A stretch of DNA of 51,502 nt, from the NCBI RefSeq assembly GCF_003334255.1, contig NZ_QOWU01000037.1. The stretch is one strand, 5' to 3'. The position numbers were made by a program, and so were the translations under genes. Positions within the stretch are counted from its first letter, which is position 1, and every line of letters begins with the position of its first letter. This DNA is from Escherichia coli. Its GTDB lineage: Bacteria; Pseudomonadota; Gammaproteobacteria; Enterobacterales; Enterobacteriaceae. Below the pieces are notes generated by a model, which saw nothing but the letters and a program-made list of their open reading frames with translations, was not told where the DNA came from and did no database searches. Positions 3,768 to 42,390 of the stretch are shown in pieces.

Positions 3768-4352
3768 TTACTCCGGATATTTAAAAATTACGTAGGTATG
3801 CGAAGGGCAGAGTTTGTTAAGCACGCACTCGACAACGGTGTCGCCCCAGATACGCAGTGCGGAATCACAGGGATCGCCACATGTCATCCAGGTGGTGTTG
3901 GTGGCGGCTGGCATGTTGACCTGCCAGTAATACCGCCATTCCGGCGCATTCACTGCGTCAGTACAGGCCGATGAGCAGGTGAACGTGCTTTTATCGTATC
4001 GCGTGATAGTGGCGTCTGGTCTGCCCAGGGCAGCAAGCTGTGCAAGGTAAAAATCCTCATTGATGCCGCCCGCCAGATTAACCTTCGCATCCAGCCGTTG
4101 CTGACGCTGGCGAAGGGTCTGTGTCCCTGCGGGAATACATTCATCCGGCAGACCGCACAGACGCTCCCAGCGGTTTATCAGTTCAGTGGTGGTGCGCGGA
4201 TCCAGCTCCCGCATCAGGGCATCCGCACGCTGATGAACGCGGGTTAATGAAGGTGCCGCACCGGCAATCGCCGGATCGCTGGCTGACCATGCAGGACCGG
4301 GCGGCAACAGTGCCGATAACAGGCGGATGTAATCATCGTTTGTCACGTCCAT
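3768..4352 (-). CDS. Tail protein, YmfQ / Mu gp48-like
   Basis: 194 aa; position between baseplate J and tail fibre as in e14 ymfQ. Confidence 0.65.
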
Positions 4353-5401
4353 GAAATCGTCCCCAGAACCGCCAGTTCATTTTTTGCAATGGAGATATTG
4401 TCCGCCGGGGCAAGCAACTGATGGCTGTATTCCCCGTTCGCACCGGAAATCGCCTCACTGATACGCGATACCTTCAGTTCTCCCTGAGGATAACCATCAC
4501 GCAGCAGGAACGAACGCAACTCTGCGGTGATGGCAGCCCGTATTTCCGGTGTGTCCGGCGTCACGCGGATATGAAAATCCACTTTATGCGCCACCGGCCT
4601 GAATACATACAAATCAGAGCCTGCCACCGGGGCCAGTGGCTCAATGTGTTGTCTTGCCGCCGTTTCCGTTGATTCTTCCGGAATGGGATTAATCAGGTCA
4701 CTGCTGGCAATCATCACACCGACAGTTCCCGTTCCCATCCAGTGACGGTATGTCCATGCGCGGGTAATGCCGGGCACTTCTTTAGCCCAGACGACATAGT
4801 CCACGTCAGCCCCGCCCTGCGGCGTCCAGTAATACCGCTCAATGATGCGGGCGCGCCACGTTTCCAGATCTTCAGTATCAAATCCGCCTGTCAGGGTGTC
4901 AGCCACACCGGAAGACGGCAGACCATTCACCGGCGTGACCAGGATTAATGACGTACCGTCGTCAGCGTTACCGACCGCGCCTGAACTTGAGCAGGCGATC
5001 GGCACGCGCAGGACACCACCGGAGCTGGTTGCATCGGCAGTTGCCGTGTACTGAACCAGGTCATCGCGCTGAATAACACTCCCGGCGGTCACCTTCAGGC
5101 CATCGCTGACACCTTCCCAGCGCATATACCCGCTGGCAGCCGTGGCCCCCTTGCGCGGACACCGTTTCATCGCAGCATGTCGCGCCAGCCAGGACTCATC
5201 GCACAGGTCAGGCAGCATGTTCATTGCCAGATAATCGATGTAACCGTAAACCGTATGCAGCGCCGCCGCATACACCTTTGCCCGCACGTCTTCATCCATG
5301 CGCCGGAGCGTGTCGCTGACGTCCAGCCTGGCGAATAAATCGTTACGGAGCATACTGATATTTTCTGCCAGCGTCGGGCGCTGAAATTCACTGTCCGCCA
5401 T
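4343..5401 (-). CDS. Baseplate J-like protein (Mu gp47-like)
   Basis: 352 aa; gene order within Mu-like baseplate module. Confidence 0.7.
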
Positions 5402-5816
5402 GCGTTATCGCACTCCACAGATCATCAAAAGAAATCATTACCGGTCCGTCACGACGCCAGAGAGTGATACTGTTACCCAGTTCATTAATCCCGGTGCGGC
5501 GGATATCCAGATCAATACGGGACACCACGCCATCATCAATCATCCATTGCAGGCATTCGCGGATATACCCCCTTACCGTCTGCACCAGCTGATTGGTCAG
5601 TTTGCTGCGCTGAAGCAGCCACAGTCGGGAGCCGTAACGGTCATTCTGTACCGCAGGCCAGGTATCCCCCCACCATCCCATCGGGACGTCGGCGTTGTCA
5701 TCAGGCTCCGCCCGCCGCCAGGTAAACAGGGAAATCACCACGGAGCGGGTCAGCGGATCCAGCGGTGCGCTGGCGCAGGTGCGTTTACCGTTCACCGTCA
5801 GCCACAGTTCCATCAT
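5388..5816 (-). CDS. Baseplate wedge protein (GPW/gp25-like, Mu gp46-like)
   Basis: 142 aa; size and position. Confidence 0.6.
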   Translation of the reverse strand: MMELWLTVNGKRTCASAPLDPLTRSVVISLFTWRRAEPDDNADVPMGWWGDTWPAVQNDRYGSRLWLLQRSKLTNQLVQTVRGYIRECLQWMIDDGVVSRIDLDIRRTGINELGNSITLWRRDGPVMISFDDLWSAITHGGQ

Positions 5817-6361
5817 GCCTCCATCGCTTTATCCGGTTTGTCGGTGTTACTGCCCTGACCGTTCTCTCTGTGACGATGCCCGTTATAGGCAAGCCGCATC
5901 GCTGACATGGTGGTGCCGCCGGAGTCGCACAGGTCTTTCACCTGTCCGGTCACTTCCAGGTCCATTTCAAAACGTGCTTCAGGTGCATTGCGAAACGTGA
6001 TCGTTTTACCTGCACCGTCCACCACGATCCCCTCCCGGGTCAGCGTCACGGACTGCCCCTGATCGTCATAGACAGCCACCTCGCCCGTCTGCAGCCCTTT
6101 CAGGCGGTAGCGACGGTCCGACACCGTAACAACCACCGCATGAGAACGGTCGCCATCCGGAAACAACACAACCGCTTCCGCACCGCTGTTTGCCCTTGCG
6201 GTAAAACCGTAGGGTTCAAGATGTTCAACCCCGGCTTTGGGTTCACCGGCAATCAGGGACACATCCACGGTCTGACATTTCGTGGCGGCACTGATGCTTT
6301 TCACCACGGCCCGCCCAATCAGGCCGAGGAGTTGTCGCTGCATGGCTTCAATCGTCCTCAT
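5813..6361 (-). CDS. Baseplate assembly/spike protein (gpV / Mu gp45-like)
   Basis: 182 aa; size and position. Confidence 0.6.
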   Translation of the reverse strand: MRTIEAMQRQLLGLIGRAVVKSISAATKCQTVDVSLIAGEPKAGVEHLEPYGFTARANSGAEAVVLFPDGDRSHAVVVTVSDRRYRLKGLQTGEVAVYDDQGQSVTLTREGIVVDGAGKTITFRNAPEARFEMDLEVTGQVKDLCDSGGTTMSAMRLAYNGHRHRENGQGSNTDKPDKAMEA

Positions 6362-7440
6362 CAGAACGGGTCCTCCTGTACTCTGGCTTTTTTCTTTTTC
6401 CGCGCGCCGGGGGCTTCGGGTTCAGGCAGATAAGCATCAGGCGGGCCGACACGGATTTCCGTCAGGGTGCCGTTCTGGTCCTGAGTAAACGTGACTTCCG
6501 AAACAAGCAGTTCGGTATTGTCGAAACCACAGACCGGATCAAAGACAATCACCCGCTGGTTGGGCTGCCACAGCGTACCGTTACCCTGTCGCCAGCCCTG
6601 CACCACATAGGTGGTTTCATCCGTCCGCGCCGCCCGTTGTCGGGCTTCAAAGTCCGCACGGGCAATACAACCTGCCCCCGTAGCCTGCCCTGTCTGCCTG
6701 ATATACATCGGACGGTAACGGGCAATAAATGCGTCCTCTGTGCGGGCCCGCAGCGCGGTGGTGGTGGCCTCACCGAAATCATCGTCGTTCCCGGCACGCT
6801 GCCCCGCCACCTGGTAAACAGAAAATCGCTCCCGGATACTCTTCTCCGTATCGCAGGAAAGGATGTTTTCCCCGAGTACCAGCGCGGTATGTGCCCGCGT
6901 TGAGCCAATACCGCCAATCACCAGCCTGCCGTGCGGGTCGTCGTAAGCCAGTGCCTGCTGCTGACCGAGTATTTTGTTGATTACCTCAATCACCGTTTCA
7001 CCGTGATCAGGCTGAACATCAGGAATAACACCCGACGGCGCACCGCTGTTCACCACCTCAATGCCGAAAGGCGCAGCAAGCGCCTGCGCAATCTGCACCA
7101 GCGAGCGTCCGTTAAACTGTGTCGGTTCGGCTGCACAGTCAATCAGGTCAGCCGTCAGACTACGTCCGGCAATACCGGTGCTGACCGAACGGGCATCGTA
7201 ACGAACGGGAGTCGCCTCCACCCAGCCGGTGATCACCAGCTCATCACCAATCAGCACTTCCACTTTTGAACCGTTTCTAATGCGCGGCTGAAGCGTGGTG
7301 ATACCCTCATCTCCCGGCCACTGGCGAGTGATCTCCACACTGAAATCCCGCGCCAGCCGTTCAATACCGGCACCGATGCGCACCGATGTCCAGCCATTCC
7401 ACTCCCGGCCATTTACCCGTAGCGTGACATTGTCGTTCAT
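6361..7440 (-). CDS. Baseplate hub protein (Mu gpP/gp44-like)
   Basis: 359 aa; size and position in module. Confidence 0.6.
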   Translation of the reverse strand: MNDNVTLRVNGREWNGWTSVRIGAGIERLARDFSVEITRQWPGDEGITTLQPRIRNGSKVEVLIGDELVITGWVEATPVRYDARSVSTGIAGRSLTADLIDCAAEPTQFNGRSLVQIAQALAAPFGIEVVNSGAPSGVIPDVQPDHGETVIEVINKILGQQQALAYDDPHGRLVIGGIGSTRAHTALVLGENILSCDTEKSIRERFSVYQVAGQRAGNDDDFGEATTTALRARTEDAFIARYRPMYIRQTGQATGAGCIARADFEARQRAARTDETTYVVQGWRQGNGTLWQPNQRVIVFDPVCGFDNTELLVSEVTFTQDQNGTLTEIRVGPPDAYLPEPEAPGARKKKKARVQEDPF

Positions 7441-22019: not shown

Positions 22020-22481
22020 CTATCTGCACTGCTCATTAATATACTTCTGGGTTCCTTCCAGTTGTTTTTGCATAGTGATCAGCCTCTCTCTGAGGGTGAA
22101 ATAATCCTGTTCAGCGGTGTCTGCCAGTCGGGGGGAGGCTGCATTATCCACGCCGGAGGCGGTGGTGGCTTCACGCACTGACTGACAGACTGCTTTGATG
22201 TGCAACCGACGACGACCAGCGGCAACATCATCACGCAGAGCATCATTTTCAGCTTTCGCATCAGCTAACTCCTTCGTGTATTTTGCATCGAGCGCAGCAA
22301 CATCACGCTGACGCATCTGCATGTCAGTAATTGCCGCGTTCGCCAGCTTCAGTTCTTTGGCATTTTTGTCGCGCTGGGCTTTATAGGTAATGGCGTTATC
22401 ACGGTAATGATTAACAGCCCATGACAGGCAGACGATGATGCAGATAACCAGAGCGGAGATAATCGCGGTTACTCTGTTCAT
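22020..22481 (-). CDS. Rz: Spanin inner-membrane subunit Rz
   Basis: [30 protein letters not shown]... near-identical to lambda Rz. Confidence 0.9.
22079..22261 (-). CDS. Rz1: Spanin outer-membrane lipoprotein Rz1 (embedded in Rz, +1 frame)
   Basis: [23 protein letters not shown]...PPPPP; lipobox VVGC. Confidence 0.85.
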
Positions 22482-22975
22482 TGCTGACCCCACAAACAGA
22501 TTTCACGCTCAATCTCACGACGAGTCATGAGACCTTTCCATTGCTTACCGCCAGCATATGTCCAGCGACGTAACTGATCACATGCGCCTTTGATATCGCC
22601 CTGGTTTATTTTGCGAAGAAGCGTCGATGTTCTGAAATTGCCAGCACCCACGTTGTAAACGAATGAGTAAAGAGCGCCGCGCGTTGTTTCCGGTATATCG
22701 ACTTCGATGTATGGGTTAATTTGTCTGGCGACAGTGGCAAGGTCTTTATTCAAGAGTGCTTTGCATTCTGCTTTGGTATACGTTTTACCGAGCATGATGT
22801 CTTTTCCTGTATGCCCGTGACATACGGTCCATACACCAACAATATCTTTGTATGGTATGTAGCTGACACCTTCCAGACCATCGTTACCACTTGGGCCAGT
22901 GATTAACACTGATGCTATAGCAATTGCTCCGCCACCAATAGCAGCAGCAACGGCTTTTCGTAATGATGGAGGCAT
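22478..22975 (-). CDS. SAR endolysin (phage 21 R-type lysozyme)
   Basis: N-terminal SAR helix [18 protein letters not shown] followed by lysozyme domain. Confidence 0.9.
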
Positions 22976-23190
22976 TATTCACCTCTCGCAGCCTTGCGCT
23001 TATCTTCTTTAATCTTGAAATAAAGGTTTGTCAGGTACGTCAGCAGGCCAAATACCAGGCTACCCAGCACACCTATTGCTGCCCACTGTGAGGGCGTGAC
23101 TTTATCGAGCAGCTGTAAAAACCAGTAACCGGCACTACCTGCTGAGGTGCCATAGGCGACACCCGTTGTTAACTTATCCATGGATTTCAT
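22975..23190 (-). CDS. Pinholin (phage 21 S-type holin)
   Basis: [26 protein letters not shown]...; start at ATG 23190 with gaggtg SD. Confidence 0.85.
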
Positions 23191-23778
23191 AACCCCACCT
23201 CGCAGACAAAGCGGGTGTAAATTGAGGGAATACAACGTATCGCAAAAAAGCAGAAACGTAACAGACTCGGAGTCAGTGAATAACTCAGGTATTGAGTTAT
23301 CAGCTAATATCGAGACTCAAAAAATGGAAAAACCAGCTCGACGGCGGGTTTAAGCTGTGTGACGAAGTAACCACTCTTAACAGCATAACCAATTTTTTAC
23401 GTACGTAAACCACTGAATGATATTTATGAGAATGCTACCGAGTGTTCAAAACACCACCACAAATACATAAGAAAACCTCAACAAATAACCAATAAATAAT
23501 TTCCGGCGTTATTTTTAGTTAATTTAAATTAAACCATCGAATTATAGACCCCCCATAAATAACAGCCATTAATATAAATTAGCTAATAGGTTTATTTTTG
23601 TTCAAATAAGAGCCATAAATAGGTTTCGATAGAAAAAGTTCAGATAAAAATAGAGATCTACTTCACAAATTAAATGAGAAACTAAAACTTACATCTTGAA
23701 ATAATCACATTGATTAGATGAATATTTATCGCGCAGTGACATCATTTTTTAATAATAGTTCAAAAAAAAGGGCTCACG

Positions 23779-24861
23779 ATGAAAAAATTAACAGTGGCAA
23801 TTTCTGCTGTAGCTGCATCAGTACTGATGGCGATGTCTGCTCAGGCAGCTGAAATTTATAATAAAGACAGTAACAAGCTGGATCTGTACGGGAAAGTTAA
23901 TGCTAAGCACTACTTCTCCTCTAATGATGCAGATGATGGTGATACTACTTATGCCCGTCTTGGCTTCAAAGGTGAAACCCAAATCAACGATCAACTGACT
24001 GGTTTCGGTCAGTGGGAATATGAATTCAAAGGCAACCGCGCTGAATCTCAAGGTTCCTCCAAAGATAAAACCCGTCTTGCCTTCGCTGGCCTGAAATTCG
24101 GTGACTACGGCTCCATCGATTACGGCCGTAACTACGGTGTAGCATACGACATCGGTGCGTGGACTGACGTCCTGCCAGAATTCGGTGGTGACACTTGGAC
24201 TCAAACAGATGTGTTCATGACTGGTCGCACCACTGGTGTTGCAACTTATCGTAACAACGACTTCTTTGGTCTGGTTGATGGTCTGAACTTTGCTGCTCAG
24301 TATCAGGGTAAAAATGACCGCACTGACGTAACTGAAGCTAATGGTGATGGTTTCGGTTTCTCCACTACTTATGAGTATGAAGGATTCGGTGTAGGTGCAA
24401 CCTATGCTAAATCTGATCGCACTAATAATCAGGTTATCTACGGTAACAACGGTCTGAATGCTTCTGGTCAAAATGCTGAAGTATGGGCAGCTGGTCTGAA
24501 ATATGATGCGAACAACATCTATCTGGCCACCACCTATTCTGAAACCCAGAACATGACTGTTTTTGGTAATAACCATATTGCCAACAAAGCACAAAACTTC
24601 GAAGCTGTTGCACAATATCAGTTCGACTTCGGCCTGCGTCCATCCGTTGCTTACCTGCATTCTAAAGGAAAAGACTTGGGTGTTTGGGGTGATCAGGACC
24701 TGGTTGAATATGTTGATGTAGGTGCAACCTATTACTTCAACAAAAATATGTCCACTTTTGTTGACTACAAAATCAACCTGATTGATAAGAGCGATTTCAC
24801 GAAAGCATCTGGCGTTGCTACCGATGATATCGTTGCTGTAGGTATGGTTTACCAGTTCTAA
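23779..24861 (+). CDS. Outer-membrane porin, prophage-encoded (NmpC/Lc/OmpC family)
   Basis: 360 aa; signal peptide ...AMSAQA; AEIYNKD...; C-terminal YQF; paralog of phoE in the window. Confidence 0.9.
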
Positions 24862-24997
24862 TTTGATTACTAAAAGATATGTTGTGGGAGGCTTTGCCTC
24901 CCCAACATATAAGTGGCTCCCTCAAGCCACTTCCTTTAGAAGCACAACCTTGCTTCTAACTATACAAACCTTCTGTTATATATTACCCTTTATTTTT

Positions 24998-25022
24998 GGG
25001 GGCGTTTCAACGCCCCATTTTT
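24998..25022 (+). terminator. Intrinsic terminator downstream of porin gene
   Basis: gggggcgtttcaacgcccc hairpin followed by attttt; preceded by three further hairpins (24879..24958). Confidence 0.5.
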
Positions 25023-25049
25023 AATAACTTTTAGTAAATAATTGGCGTA

Positions 25050-25433
25050 TTAATTAGAGTTATTAACAACGATATCCATCTCTAACCGGATATCTAATGC
25101 CATTAACATCCCTTCAATTATGCCCTCAGCCTTCTGTAACCTTTTCCCGATATAACCATCAGAGCAGCAATGCTTACCTGCCAGTGACATGAATGTCATA
25201 CCGACTACATAATAATCTACTAATAAATCGTGCAAATCGCTGTTGTTCTTTTTCAGACGGGCCATGCACCCGCAAATGATCATCGCGTCATCGTCACAAC
25301 ATTGCGGGCGAGATTTTACTTTTGAAGTAATTAATCCCTTAAAACCGGCGGCAATGGACGACCAGGTCACATCTTCATGATTATTAGCCGCCCACGCTCC
25401 CCAACGCTCAAGAACCATCTGAATATCACGCAT
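25050..25433 (-). CDS. Late-gene antiterminator Q (QuuD/phage 21-82 type)
   Basis: [21 protein letters not shown]...; start at ATG 25433. Confidence 0.85.
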
Positions 25434-38488: not shown

Positions 38489-38564
38489 TGGTGCCGATAA
38501 TAGGAGTCGAACCTACGACCTTCGCATTACGAATGCGCTGCTCTACCAACTGAGCTATATCGGC
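38489..38564 (-). tRNA. thrW: tRNA-Thr (anticodon CGU), thrW-like; prophage attachment site
   Basis: Reverse complement GCCGATATAGCTCAGTTGGTAGAGCAGCGCATTCGTAATGCGAAGGTCGTAGGTTCGACTCCTATTATCGGCACCA folds as cloverleaf. Confidence 0.9.
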
Positions 38565-41334: not shown

Positions 41335-42390
41335 ATGAAAAAGAGCACTCTGGCATTAGTGGTGATGGGCATTGTGGCATCTGCATCTGTACAGGCTGCA
41401 GAAATATATAATAAAGACGGTAATAAACTGGATGTCTATGGCAAAGTTAAAGCCATGCATTATATGAGTGATAACGCCAGTAAAGATGGCGACCAGAGTT
41501 ATATCCGTTTTGGTTTTAAAGGCGAAACACAAATTAACGATCAACTGACTGGTTATGGTCGTTGGGAAGCAGAGTTTGCCGGTAATAAAGCAGAGAGTGA
41601 TACTGCACAGCAAAAAACGCGTCTCGCTTTTGCCGGGTTGAAATATAAAGATTTGGGTTCTTTCGATTATGGTCGTAACCTGGGGGCGTTGTATGACGTG
41701 GAAGCCTGGACCGATATGTTCCCGGAATTTGGTGGCGATTCCTCGGCGCAGACCGACAACTTTATGACCAAACGCGCCAGCGGTCTGGCGACGTATCGGA
41801 ACACCGACTTCTTCGGCGTTATCGATGGCCTGAACTTAACCCTGCAATATCAAGGGAAAAACGAAAACCGCGACGTTAAAAAGCAAAACGGCGATGGCTT
41901 CGGCACGTCATTGACATATGACTTTGGCGGCAGCGATTTCGCCATTAGTGGGGCCTATACCAACTCAGATCGCACCAACGAGCAGAACCTGCAAAGCCGT
42001 GGCACAGGCAAGCGTGCAGAAGCATGGGCAACAGGTCTGAAATACGATGCCAATAATATTTATCTGGCAACTTTCTATTCTGAAACACGCAAAATGACGC
42101 CAATAACTGGCGGCTTTGCCAATAAGACACAGAACTTTGAAGCGGTCGCTCAATACCAGTTTGACTTTGGTCTGCGTCCATCGCTGGGTTATGTCTTATC
42201 GAAAGGGAAAGATATTGAAGGTATCGGTGATGAAGATCTGGTCAATTATATCGACGTCGGTGCTACGTATTATTTCAACAAAAATATGTCAGCGTTTGTT
42301 GATTATAAAATCAACCAACTGGATAGCGATAACAAATTGAATATTAATAATGATGATATTGTCGCGGTTGGCATGACGTATCAGTTTTAA
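41335..42390 (+). CDS. phoE: Phosphate-starvation porin PhoE
   Basis: [31 protein letters not shown]...; 351 aa. Confidence 0.95.

Follow-up and report, generated by a model that had tools for sequence, protein, structure and literature searches.

A lambdoid porin cassette of the lc/nmpC type, with an IpeX-like 3' untranslated region, probably separates antiterminator Q from its late promoter in an Escherichia coli prophage

The prophage porin locus described here is best explained, with a probability of roughly 0.8, as the PA-2 lc/DLP12 nmpC cassette, placed between the antiterminator gene Q and PR', the promoter on which Q would act, and carrying the small RNA IpeX as its 3' untranslated region (3'UTR). 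Judged by homology, the locus is a porin cassette long familiar from lambdoid prophages of E. coli as lc/nmpC, and to that extent its biology is already known. It lies in a window of 51,502 nucleotides (the whole stretch of E. coli DNA that was analysed), in which the positions of the open reading frames give the order Q(-), porin(+), holin(-) (Table 1). The cassette is present in 2457 out of 5426 E. coli genomes and in 36 phage records, and the layout quuD-nmpC-essD is found in ~46% of complete E. coli genomes. What is possibly unreported is a MicC-like linker within IpeX that is predicted to pair with the leader of ompC.

The identity of the cassette is best illustrated by its two classical relatives. 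The phage PA-2 lc record J02580 (Blasband, Marcotte & Schnaitman 1986) aligns with the locus end to end over 2816 bp at 92.8% identity, in the collinear order Rz-R-S-spacer-lc-3'UTR, and agrees with it in orientation, upstream region, 3' hairpins and PR' segment. Gene order and spacers are also alike in the K-12 prophage DLP12 (qsr'), quuD-nmpC-essD, where the Q-porin spacer is ~97% identical and the PR' segment is identical at key positions. An earlier sequence-only reading of this DNA had taken the porin for lysogenic-conversion cargo and named PA-2 lc and DLP12 nmpC as the comparisons to make, and both bear it out. The locus nevertheless differs from each. Compared with PA-2, its porin allele is 5 aa shorter and differs in three stretches, and the prophage backbone has a P27-type terminase and a contractile-tail module. 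Compared with DLP12, which is inserted at argU, this prophage sits at thrW, a tRNA-Thr site adjoining proA-proB-phoE; its porin is intact whereas K-12 nmpC is broken by IS5, and K-12 has a perfect PR'-proximal hairpin and a leader 16 nt shorter, neither of which is true here. The window also holds, as noted previously, the cargo gene bor and the chromosomal porin paralog phoE (~41335..42389, +). In contrast to the porin cassette, bor/iss does sit within the late operon, on the opposite strand.

The limits of the insertion can be traced at the Q side. Q is 78% identical to the Q of the Stx2 II phage over residues 1-120 and divergent beyond, its last seven codons (~25050-25073) have no homology to Stx-phage Q, and DNA homology to phage 1H12 stops at 25074; the 188-bp spacer between Q and the porin gene is found, among phage records, only in those that carry the porin. 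We suggest from this pattern that the last seven codons of Q arrived with the porin cassette, which would be ~1.66 kb long (roughly 23411..25073). With regard to its status as a moron, the cassette has a terminator of its own, a promoter of its own supported by K-12 genetics, and a GC content of 0.28-0.44 as against 0.51 for the window, and Q and PR' are contiguous in Stx2 phages that lack it. It lies upstream of PR', however, rather than inside the late operon where late transcription would cross it.

Table 1. Positions of the porin cassette, its parts and its neighbours in the window
Feature	Position	Strand	Basis
bor/iss lipoprotein gene	21695..21988	+	Identical genome record: 'increased serum survival lipoprotein Iss'
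Holin EssD (S), first late-operon gene	22975..23190	-	Annotation in identical genome record
Predicted late (lysis) transcript leader	23191..23374	-	From PR' position
Promoter-proximal hairpin and U-runs, +25 to +57 of predicted late transcript	23319..23351	-	Alignment
Putative late promoter PR' (933W/Sp5 type)	23375..23409	-	Homology to mapped Stx-phage PR'
Porin control region, very AT-rich (GC 0.28)	23411..23778	+	Composition, seven-copy alignment
Prophage porin, Lc/NmpC allele, 360 aa	23779..24861	+	Open reading frame, no stops
Porin 3'UTR, probable IpeX region (5' AU-rich tail, H1-H3, linker, terminator)	24862..25023	+	Homology, fold
H1	24877..24910	+	15 bp and one bulge, -22.2 kcal/mol
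H2	24911..24932	+	8 bp
H3	24936..24959	+	8-9 bp
Single-stranded linker, ~39 nt	24960-24998	+	Fold
Conserved linker segment, predicted seed against ompC leader -32..-6 (MicC site and Shine-Dalgarno)	24966..24996	+	RNAduplex, alleles
Terminator	24999..25016, then AUUUUU, U-run to 25022	+	Terminator scan
Antiterminator Q (QuuD, 127 aa)	25050..25433	-	Pfam PF06530, E = 4e-53

Downstream of the porin gene, the three stem-loops and terminator described by the sequence-only reading are all present, but they appear to be more than terminators and to form the 3'UTR-derived sRNA IpeX. The 167-nt stretch folds at -58.5 kcal/mol, compared with -28.9 +/- 3.3 for shuffled sequences (z = -9.0, 0 of 200 as good), and its structure is therefore far beyond chance. 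The hairpin cluster shares ~97% identity with the nmpC-quuD spacer of K-12, where IpeX lies according to the literature, and 95% with the sequence downstream of PA-2 lc. It resembles IpeX (Castillo-Keller, Vuong & Misra 2006) in sequence, in its place right after the porin stop codon and in its Rho-independent terminator, and the few substitutions that set it apart are confined to the loops, the bulge and the 5' tail. A review and other secondary sources describe IpeX as a 167-nt RNA carried on the porin transcript of DLP12 and PA-2 and processed from it, and the sequence downstream of nmpC/lc has been reported to repress OmpC and OmpF post-transcriptionally. Here, 161-164 nt separate the porin stop codon from the U-run, which fits that length. 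On these grounds of homology and fold we identify the hairpin cluster as IpeX.

The distribution and variation of the sequence are consistent with this identification. The IpeX sequence is found in 2510 out of 5426 E. coli genomes and, among phage records, only in the 36 that carry the porin. Across six alleles, substitutions avoid the stems, with 4 variable columns out of 78 in stems and 18 out of 84 elsewhere (Fisher p = 0.003). A covariation test on the same six alleles found no two-sided changes in the hairpins, since the alleles are too similar. Rfam searches at gathering and permissive thresholds matched neither the hairpins nor the spacer; apart from chance snoRNA hits they picked up only a tRNA-Thr and, likewise in another part of the window, an IS3 ALIL pseudoknot.

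The part of IpeX that hints at a mode of action is the linker between H3 and the terminator. It has a mean probability of being unpaired of 0.77. Among the six alleles it differs only in how long its 3' T-run is, whereas the loops of the hairpins are variable. Its blocks GUUAUAU and CCUUUAUU amount to 15 of the first 16 nt of MicC with their order kept; in MicC the two are joined by G, whereas in IpeX they are split by AUUAC. Using the linker only (whole IpeX against whole leaders gave meaningless 120-nt 'duplexes') and taking shuffles and real 5' regions as controls, RNAduplex predicts pairing with the ompC leader at -26.4 kcal/mol through 15 bp and 9 bp of complementarity that extend over the Shine-Dalgarno sequence, and none of 500 shuffles was as good. 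The authentic MicC-ompC duplex, computed by the identical method, reaches -26.5 kcal/mol. The same stretch of the ompC leader is thus predicted for both RNAs at equal energy, the IpeX pairing running farther 3'-ward than that of MicC, over the Shine-Dalgarno sequence. IpeX is 3'UTR-derived and prophage-borne and otherwise dissimilar to MicC. None of 61 real 5' regions reached the ompC value, yet the best of them, at -24.2, makes specificity by energy alone modest. Pairing with ompF is weak (-18.8, reached by 7% of shuffles), and neither the porin's own mRNA (-14.3 kcal/mol) nor that of phoE (-13.7 kcal/mol) is a predicted target. In 5365 out of 5426 genomes the ompC leader has an identity of 99% or more. 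When one genome per species was searched for exact copies of the linker, the single match was a 5-kb contig labelled Lachnospiraceae; it carries an E. coli yedK-porin-ybcM-ybcL remnant and is probably mis-binned.

We speculate, tentatively, that IpeX may act by plain antisense pairing and that its invariant linker is a prophage-borne mimic of the MicC seed. It is also possible, if doubtful, that IpeX represses OmpC without any direct pairing, for instance because it titrates some factor or because the additional porin sets off envelope-stress signalling, as would match the original description. The abstract of that description reportedly states that the authors found no complementarity to ompC and that ompC is affected independently of Hfq. 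A review likewise holds that the mechanism does not rely solely on complementarity, and IpeX has been described as Hfq-independent. Against action without pairing stand the ompC complementarity itself, which has a stability like that of MicC and covers the Shine-Dalgarno sequence, and the fact that the complementary segment is both accessible and invariant.

The conservation of the linker bears on a further possibility, that the hairpin cluster is mainly a two-way transcriptional insulator and its sRNA activity incidental. On the plus strand a GC-rich hairpin followed by a U-run would end the porin transcript, and on the minus strand H1 followed by CUUUUAG would end the early transcript after Q. 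The genes for Q and the porin are convergent, all four hairpins fold equally well on both strands, and the letters after H1 on the minus strand are CUUUUAG in the window and CUUUUUCG in K-12 and PA-2. However, one terminator would be enough for that purpose, the most conserved part is the 39-nt unpaired linker with its MicC-like blocks, and the repression of OmpC and OmpF by this sequence is published. We thus consider it unlikely that insulation is the main function, although an insulator role and an sRNA role are mutually compatible.

The porin gene itself is intact, at the position and in the orientation given previously, between Q and holin on the opposite strand. Its product has a 23-aa signal peptide and a C-terminus (...VYQF) that ends in Phe. 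It scores 514.7 bits against the NCBIfam NF007841 'porin OmpC' subfamily model (cutoff 484) and falls below the cutoffs of both the PhoE and the OmpF equivalog models, and its residues 24-360 align over the full length with the solved OmpC, OmpK36, PhoE and OmpF chains (E ~1e-135 against OmpC chain residues 1-343). By these comparisons it is a complete general bacterial porin of the 16-strand OmpC/OmpF/PhoE type. It is 90.7% identical both to PA-2 Lc and to the reconstructed K-12 NmpC, and the differences cluster in three stretches which, judged by their position, are probably surface loops.

The porin is probably expressed in the lysogen. Its homologs are thermoregulated, rank among the strongest 37 C-induced genes and have been detected as protein too; moreover, PnmpC is active in K-12. 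These reports, and the intact reading frame, whose identical protein WP_000737272.1 is annotated in an identical genome record, make it improbable that the porin is silent cargo here, either silenced by H-NS or decaying like K-12 nmpC::IS5. The very AT-rich upstream region and the IS insertions that recur in this gene (K-12, F8704-2, ML35 and JB2) would favor such silence. By contrast, the cassette persists where prophages have decayed to remnants devoid of Q and the lysis genes.

The region upstream of the porin turned out to be composite. The spacer between holin and porin, 23191..23778, is 588 bp long, the earlier start at 23236 having come from a longer TTG reading frame. What had been described as one very AT-rich upstream region of ~540 bp is indeed AT-rich (GC 0.32 over 23236..23778), but it combines a late promoter and leader with the porin control region: the segment 23191..23410, which contains the former, has a GC content of 0.42, and only the control region is very AT-rich. 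In an alignment of seven copies, the proximal 145 bp of the control region (23634-23778) are nearly invariant, and in K-12 deletion of -199..-1 abolishes PnmpC activity. A consensus promoter scan recovered neither a porin promoter nor PR'. We tentatively place the porin promoter at TTGAAA (23696-23701) and GAATAT (23720-23725), with an 18 bp spacer and with CRP at about -72, the CRP-like site 23650-23670 being transferred from the PA-2 record J02580. A distal CRP site of that record (~23354-23374) was rejected as a porin activator because it lies 405 bp from the porin ATG and within the initial transcribed region of PR', a region conserved in Stx phages too, where it takes a less CRP-like form.

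The late promoter lies beyond the cassette. Its -35 element TTTACG (23409-23404) is embedded in the palindrome TTTACGTACGTAAA, its -10 element is TATGCT (23387-23382), and its predicted start is near 23375. By BLAST and alignment, homologs are found in Stx2 II, Sakai Sp5, the 75/02 Stx1 phage and 06-3462, and the homologous segment is annotated pR' in the 933W-type record OP797663. In Sp5, dRNA-seq placed the start 258 nt upstream of the 3' end of tR', and this mapped start falls 7 nt after the -10 element. The hexamers are weak (4/6 and 4/6) and stay under the threshold of the promoter scan, but the motif (23409..23369, -) is unique in the window and none of 100 shuffles contains a match. The first hairpin of the transcript is terminator-like and would yield an RNA of ~50 nt. 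Its stem is weakened by a C.U mismatch in the window and perfect in 4 of 6 DLP12-type copies, Stx2 and Stx1 phages differ in it by a compensatory A-U to C-G change, and the 933W-type record labels it a 'possible rho-independent terminator'. No second terminator was found between this hairpin and holin, and the fold of the leader is unremarkable (z = -2.0).

The -35, -10, initial transcribed sequence and first hairpin are thus homologous to the PR'-StxS-tR' system of Stx phages (933W, Sp5), whose cognate Q is 78-81% identical to the Q of this prophage, and we infer that this copy of PR' is Q-dependent as well. The PR' of most Stx phages overlaps the end of Q and gives a transcript (StxS) that reaches tR' after 258 nt; in this prophage 1.66 kb lie between Q and PR', homology extends no farther than the first hairpin, and holin is no more than 185 nt away. 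With PR' situated in the porin-holin spacer, Q and PR' are separated by the cassette, the late promoter points away from that of the porin, and the late operon can be transcribed without traversing the porin. The sequence-only reading had deduced from the gene order that late transcription must cross the porin antisense, which does not agree with where the window has its sole PR'-like sequence; the one transcription that could run antisense to the porin is early transcription from PR that continues past Q. It is very improbable that PR' instead adjoins Q, so that Q-modified transcription runs antisense through IpeX and porin to holin and silences the porin in lytic growth: the gene order and the example of lambda and most Stx phages, with PR' directly after Q, would suit such an arrangement, but no PR' is homologous to the 188-bp Q-porin spacer, which is restricted to porin-carrying phage records, the promoter scan found no minus-strand promoter in 24862..25049, the only PR' homolog in the window, with conserved -35/-10 and hairpin, is at 23409..23319, the PR' segment of the 75/02 Stx1 phage is also apart from Q, by a 594-bp ORF, and the literature puts the DLP12 lysis-operon promoter just upstream of essD.

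In phage 1H12, with a Q that is 87.5% identical, different cargo follows Q, and no copy of this PR' could be recognised. As a corollary weaker than our tentative proposal for the linker, the gap between Q and PR' might be a recurrent cargo slot shielded from late transcription, occupied by the porin here, by an ORF in the 75/02 Stx phage and by blc in 1H12.

Taken as the PA-2 lc/DLP12 nmpC cassette inserted between Q and PR', the locus would work as follows. The conserved AT-rich control region would drive the porin in the lysogen, as the 37 C induction of its homologs suggests, and the porin mRNA would end in the 160-nt structured 3'UTR, IpeX. Given the activity reported for it in the literature, IpeX would lower the synthesis of host OmpC and OmpF, and by this the prophage would replace the host porins with its own, which would change phage and colicin receptors and permeability. 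The linker might serve as a MicC-like antisense seed that blocks translation by pairing with a stretch of the ompC leader reaching from the MicC site across the Shine-Dalgarno sequence. The late operon would start past the cassette at PR', with a short hairpin and U-run before holin.

The cassette thus represents a textbook lysogenic conversion of the cell surface, carried by nearly half of complete E. coli genomes, and OmpC and OmpF are phage and colicin receptors and routes of antibiotic entry. The late promoter beyond the cassette shows that gene order alone can be misleading on transcription. IpeX is absent from Rfam, and none of the 40 RefSeq matches listed has it annotated, which hides it from standard pipelines. 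The MicC-like pairing, if real, would offer a simple mechanism for an sRNA that is 20 years old and still said to act in an unclear way, and the published view of no complementarity would need revision. In that case, a phage sRNA derived from a 3'UTR would have come, by convergence or by copying, to act on the target site of a core-genome sRNA, turning the host porin off while sparing its own.

The window, identical in sequence to strain G1/2, comes from an E. coli chromosome in which a lambdoid prophage is integrated at tRNA-Thr beside proA-proB-phoE; an IS3-type ALIL frameshift pseudoknot lies close to the end of the window (50966-51082 (+), 121 bits). ORF and fold analysis placed the porin, Q, the holin and the downstream hairpins where the sequence-only reading had them (Table), and its boundary at 23236 proved to be based on a longer TTG ORF, not on the annotated essD. 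The porin scores above the cutoff of the NCBIfam 'porin OmpC' subfamily model, and its mature chain aligns end to end, residue 1 through the C-terminal Phe, with the solved OmpC, OmpK36, PhoE and OmpF structures. The entire PA-2 record (Rz-R-S-lc, 2816 bp) aligns to 22288..25087 at 92.8%, and the gene order of DLP12 in K-12 is identical (quuD-nmpC::IS5-essD-rrrD-rzpD-borD). The comparison that the sequence-only reading had proposed thus shows the locus to be the same element as PA-2 lc and DLP12 nmpC, and this homology, with the porin family match, bears out its interpretation as a lysogenic-conversion porin. Both the cassette and this role are already known. Of 5426 complete E. coli genomes, 2457 carry the 2.1-kb segment with at least 80% coverage, as do 36 phage records. 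The porin is 90.7% identical to PA-2 Lc and to K-12 NmpC (the latter reconstructed across its IS5), the differences falling in three stretches that we take, from their position relative to OmpF/OmpC, to be loops L4-L6.

Where late transcription begins is indicated by comparison with Stx phages. QuuD, a Pfam PF06530 protein, shares 78-81% identity with the Q proteins of 933W-, Sp5- and H-19B-type Stx phages, whose Q-dependent late promoter PR' overlaps the end of the Q gene. For Sakai Sp5, the PR' start was mapped by dRNA-seq and Term-seq to 258 nt before the 3' end of tR' (PMC7547250). As read from the sequence, this start lies 7 nt past a TATCAT -10 element, with TTTACG as the -35 element; a 933W-type record labels the same 28 bp pR' and the hairpin after them a possible terminator. 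The Stx PR' segment aligns to 23410..23328 (-), not to the Q-porin spacer, and the motif occurs once in the window and in all five DLP12-type copies examined that retain the spacer. Because PR' homology starts at 23410 and homology to Stx Q ends past residue 120, near 25073, sequence comparison indicates that Q and PR' were parted by the insertion of a cassette of ~1.66 kb (23411..25073), which holds the last seven Q codons, the sRNA IpeX, the porin and the porin control region. This fits the published position of the DLP12 lysis-operon promoter, immediately before essD, and also the Shigella Stx1 phage 75/02, where a 594-bp ORF likewise parts Q from the same PR'. The gap after Q looks like a site of repeated insertion. 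The porin and late promoters are predicted to diverge, the late transcript starting 185 nt before the holin. The earlier view that late transcription must cross the porin antisense is therefore not upheld, since the PR' homolog lies past the cassette and the late operon starts there; antisense to the porin could come only from early PR transcription running past Q. Unlike the porin, bor/iss does sit within the late operon, oriented against it. Cargo after a QuuD-like Q was also seen as the 75/02 ORF, before PR' (3881-4662 of the 75/02 locus compared), and, directly after Q in phage 1H12, as reverse-strand blc lipocalin and ybgA-like genes (3878-6929 of the 1H12 locus compared).

Coordinates of features in the prophage porin region
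Feature	Position	Strand	Basis or remark
bor/iss	21695..21988	+	within late operon, strand opposite to operon
Holin essD	22975..23190	-	annotated gene
PR' and late leader	23191..23410		GC 0.42
PR'-proximal hairpin and U-runs	23351..23319	-	alignment to Stx phages
Late start, predicted	near 23375	-	register with Sp5 PR'
PR' -10 TATGCT	23387-23382	-	alignment to Stx-phage PR'
PR' -35 TTTACG	23409-23404	-	alignment to Stx-phage PR'
Porin control DNA	23411..23778		GC 0.28
Porin ORF	23779..24861	+	360 aa, no interruption
H1	24877-24910	+	hairpin
H2	24911-24932	+	hairpin
H3	24936-24959	+	hairpin
Terminator	24999-25016	+	GC-rich stem, then AUUUUU
Q	25050..25433	-	ORF
tRNA-Thr	38492-38564	-	abuts integrase; prophage attachment site

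The PR' -35 element lies within a perfect 14-bp palindrome, TTTACGTACGTAAA (23396-23409 (-)), and the Stx2-phage sequence at this position, TTTACGATCGTAAA, is likewise perfectly palindromic; a protein, possibly Q or a repressor, could bind here. The stem of the PR'-proximal hairpin (23330-23351 (-)) has a C.U mismatch in the window and PA-2, both porin-intact, is perfect in the aligned K-12, 5735, SCU-124 and JB2 copies, and is kept between Stx1 and Stx2 phages by a compensatory A-U to C-G change. This hairpin would yield a short RNA of ~50 nt, which is annotated in no record. In the 1986 PA-2 record, a distal 'CRP site' (GCTGTGTGACGAAGTAACCAC) is marked that falls at 23354-23374, +1..+22 of the predicted late transcript; the resemblance may be fortuitous, or the sequence may belong to a Q-loading or pause region. 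K-12 lacks 16 nt of the late leader (CTGCTTTTTTGCGATA, 23237-23252) that are present in the window and PA-2, just upstream of the holin ribosome-binding site.

The ~540-bp upstream region of the sequence-only reading is indeed AT-rich (GC 0.32 over 23236..23778 versus 0.51 for the window), but it is a composite of PR' and leader with the porin control DNA. Across seven copies, two diverged ones among them, the proximal 145 bp (23634..23778) are nearly invariant and the distal part drifts. In K-12, deletion of -199..-1 abolished PnmpC-driven transcription. A consensus promoter scan found no porin promoter; a putative one, TTGAAA (23696-23701), 18 bp, GAATAT (23720-23725), would place the CRP site marked in the PA-2 record, which maps to about 23650-23670, near -72. 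Porin homologs are strongly induced at 37 C versus 23 C in RNA and protein, which fits H-NS-type thermoregulation of AT-rich DNA and argues against a silent porin, the outcome that the sequence-only reading had named as a refutation.

The stretch downstream of the porin folds nine standard deviations better than shuffled sequences, and the porin-Q spacer is ~97% identical to the K-12 nmpC-quuD spacer and 95% identical to the DNA after PA-2 lc. In the literature, IpeX is a 167-nt sRNA of DLP12/PA-2 that is part of the porin transcript, is processed out of it, and represses OmpC and OmpF. It reportedly begins at the nmpC stop codon and extends to a Rho-independent terminator; the 161-164 nt between stop codon and U-run in the window fit its length. 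By this correspondence the hairpins can be identified as IpeX, so that the three stem-loops and terminator of the sequence-only reading exist but were under-interpreted. There is no Rfam model for the element. At 90-100% identity it was found in 2510 of 5426 genomes, with no annotated feature under it among the 40 matches listed. Among phage records it occurs only where the porin is also carried, and thus belongs to the porin cassette rather than to Q. Across six alleles, variable columns number 4/78 in stems versus 18/84 elsewhere (Fisher p = 0.003), and two-sided covariation is absent because these alleles are too similar. The stop-codon context UAA|UUUGAUU (24859-24866) resembles an RNase E site, whose consensus is R-N|W-U-U; a cut there would free an RNA close to the reported size of IpeX. 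The minus-strand copy of H1 (15 bp) precedes CUUUUAG in the window and CUUUUUCG in K-12 and PA-2; it could terminate the Q transcript, in which case the Q mRNA 3' end would fully complement IpeX.

The most conserved part of this 3'UTR is not a hairpin but the unpaired linker 24960-24998 (mean P(unpaired) 0.75; 0.77 for 24966-24996). Positions 24966-24996 could pair with -32..-6 of the K-12 ompC leader; in the predicted duplex, which covers the Shine-Dalgarno sequence, 15 bp (one G.U) and 9 bp flank a small internal loop. The predicted energy of -26.4 kcal/mol was reached by 0/500 shuffles and is close to that of the authentic MicC-ompC duplex by the same method (-26.5). None of 61 real control 5' regions reached it; since the best gave -24.2, specificity on energy alone is only moderate. 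The linker carries GUUAUAU and CCUUUAUU, 15 of the first 16 nt of MicC in the same order, separated by AUUAC in IpeX and by G in MicC. Of 5426 genomes, 5365 carry an ompC leader of at least 99% identity. Neither the cassette's own porin (-14.3) nor phoE (-13.7) is a predicted target, and ompF is marginal (-18.8, matched by 7% of shuffles). By this pairing the linker would occlude the ribosome-binding site of ompC, a simple mechanism resembling that of MicC. This conflicts with the literature, where complementarity is held not to account for the IpeX effect; the original abstract reportedly takes the same position. The pairing was not found described in the literature examined, and may have been noted elsewhere; the MicC-like seed, a prediction, is the only possibly new element here.

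In E. coli SCU-123, porin and IpeX (1216-2486 of the SCU-123 locus compared) are kept, flanked by yedK on one side and ybcM-ybcL-emrE on the other, in a degraded DLP12 remnant without Q, PR' or lysis genes. This survival, together with the allele-variable loop stretches, points to selection on the cassette itself. However, the porin gene has been disrupted repeatedly, in K-12, F8704-2, ML35 and JB2, by IS5, an IS3-family element and, twice, ISKpn26, which suggests an opposite pressure on the porin in some lineages; in K-12 the IS5 transposase is reported to be driven by the porin promoter. A 5-kb contig assigned to a Lachnospiraceae MAG shows the same yedK/ybcM-ybcL-emrE porin context and is probably E. 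coli DNA that was mis-binned. In a lysogen, the prophage would make its own porin allele, and the same transcript would supply an RNA lowering the host porins. PA-2 uses OmpC for adsorption, and its lysogens lose this porin; the cassette would thus confer superinfection exclusion, and it would also alter colicin and antibiotic entry.
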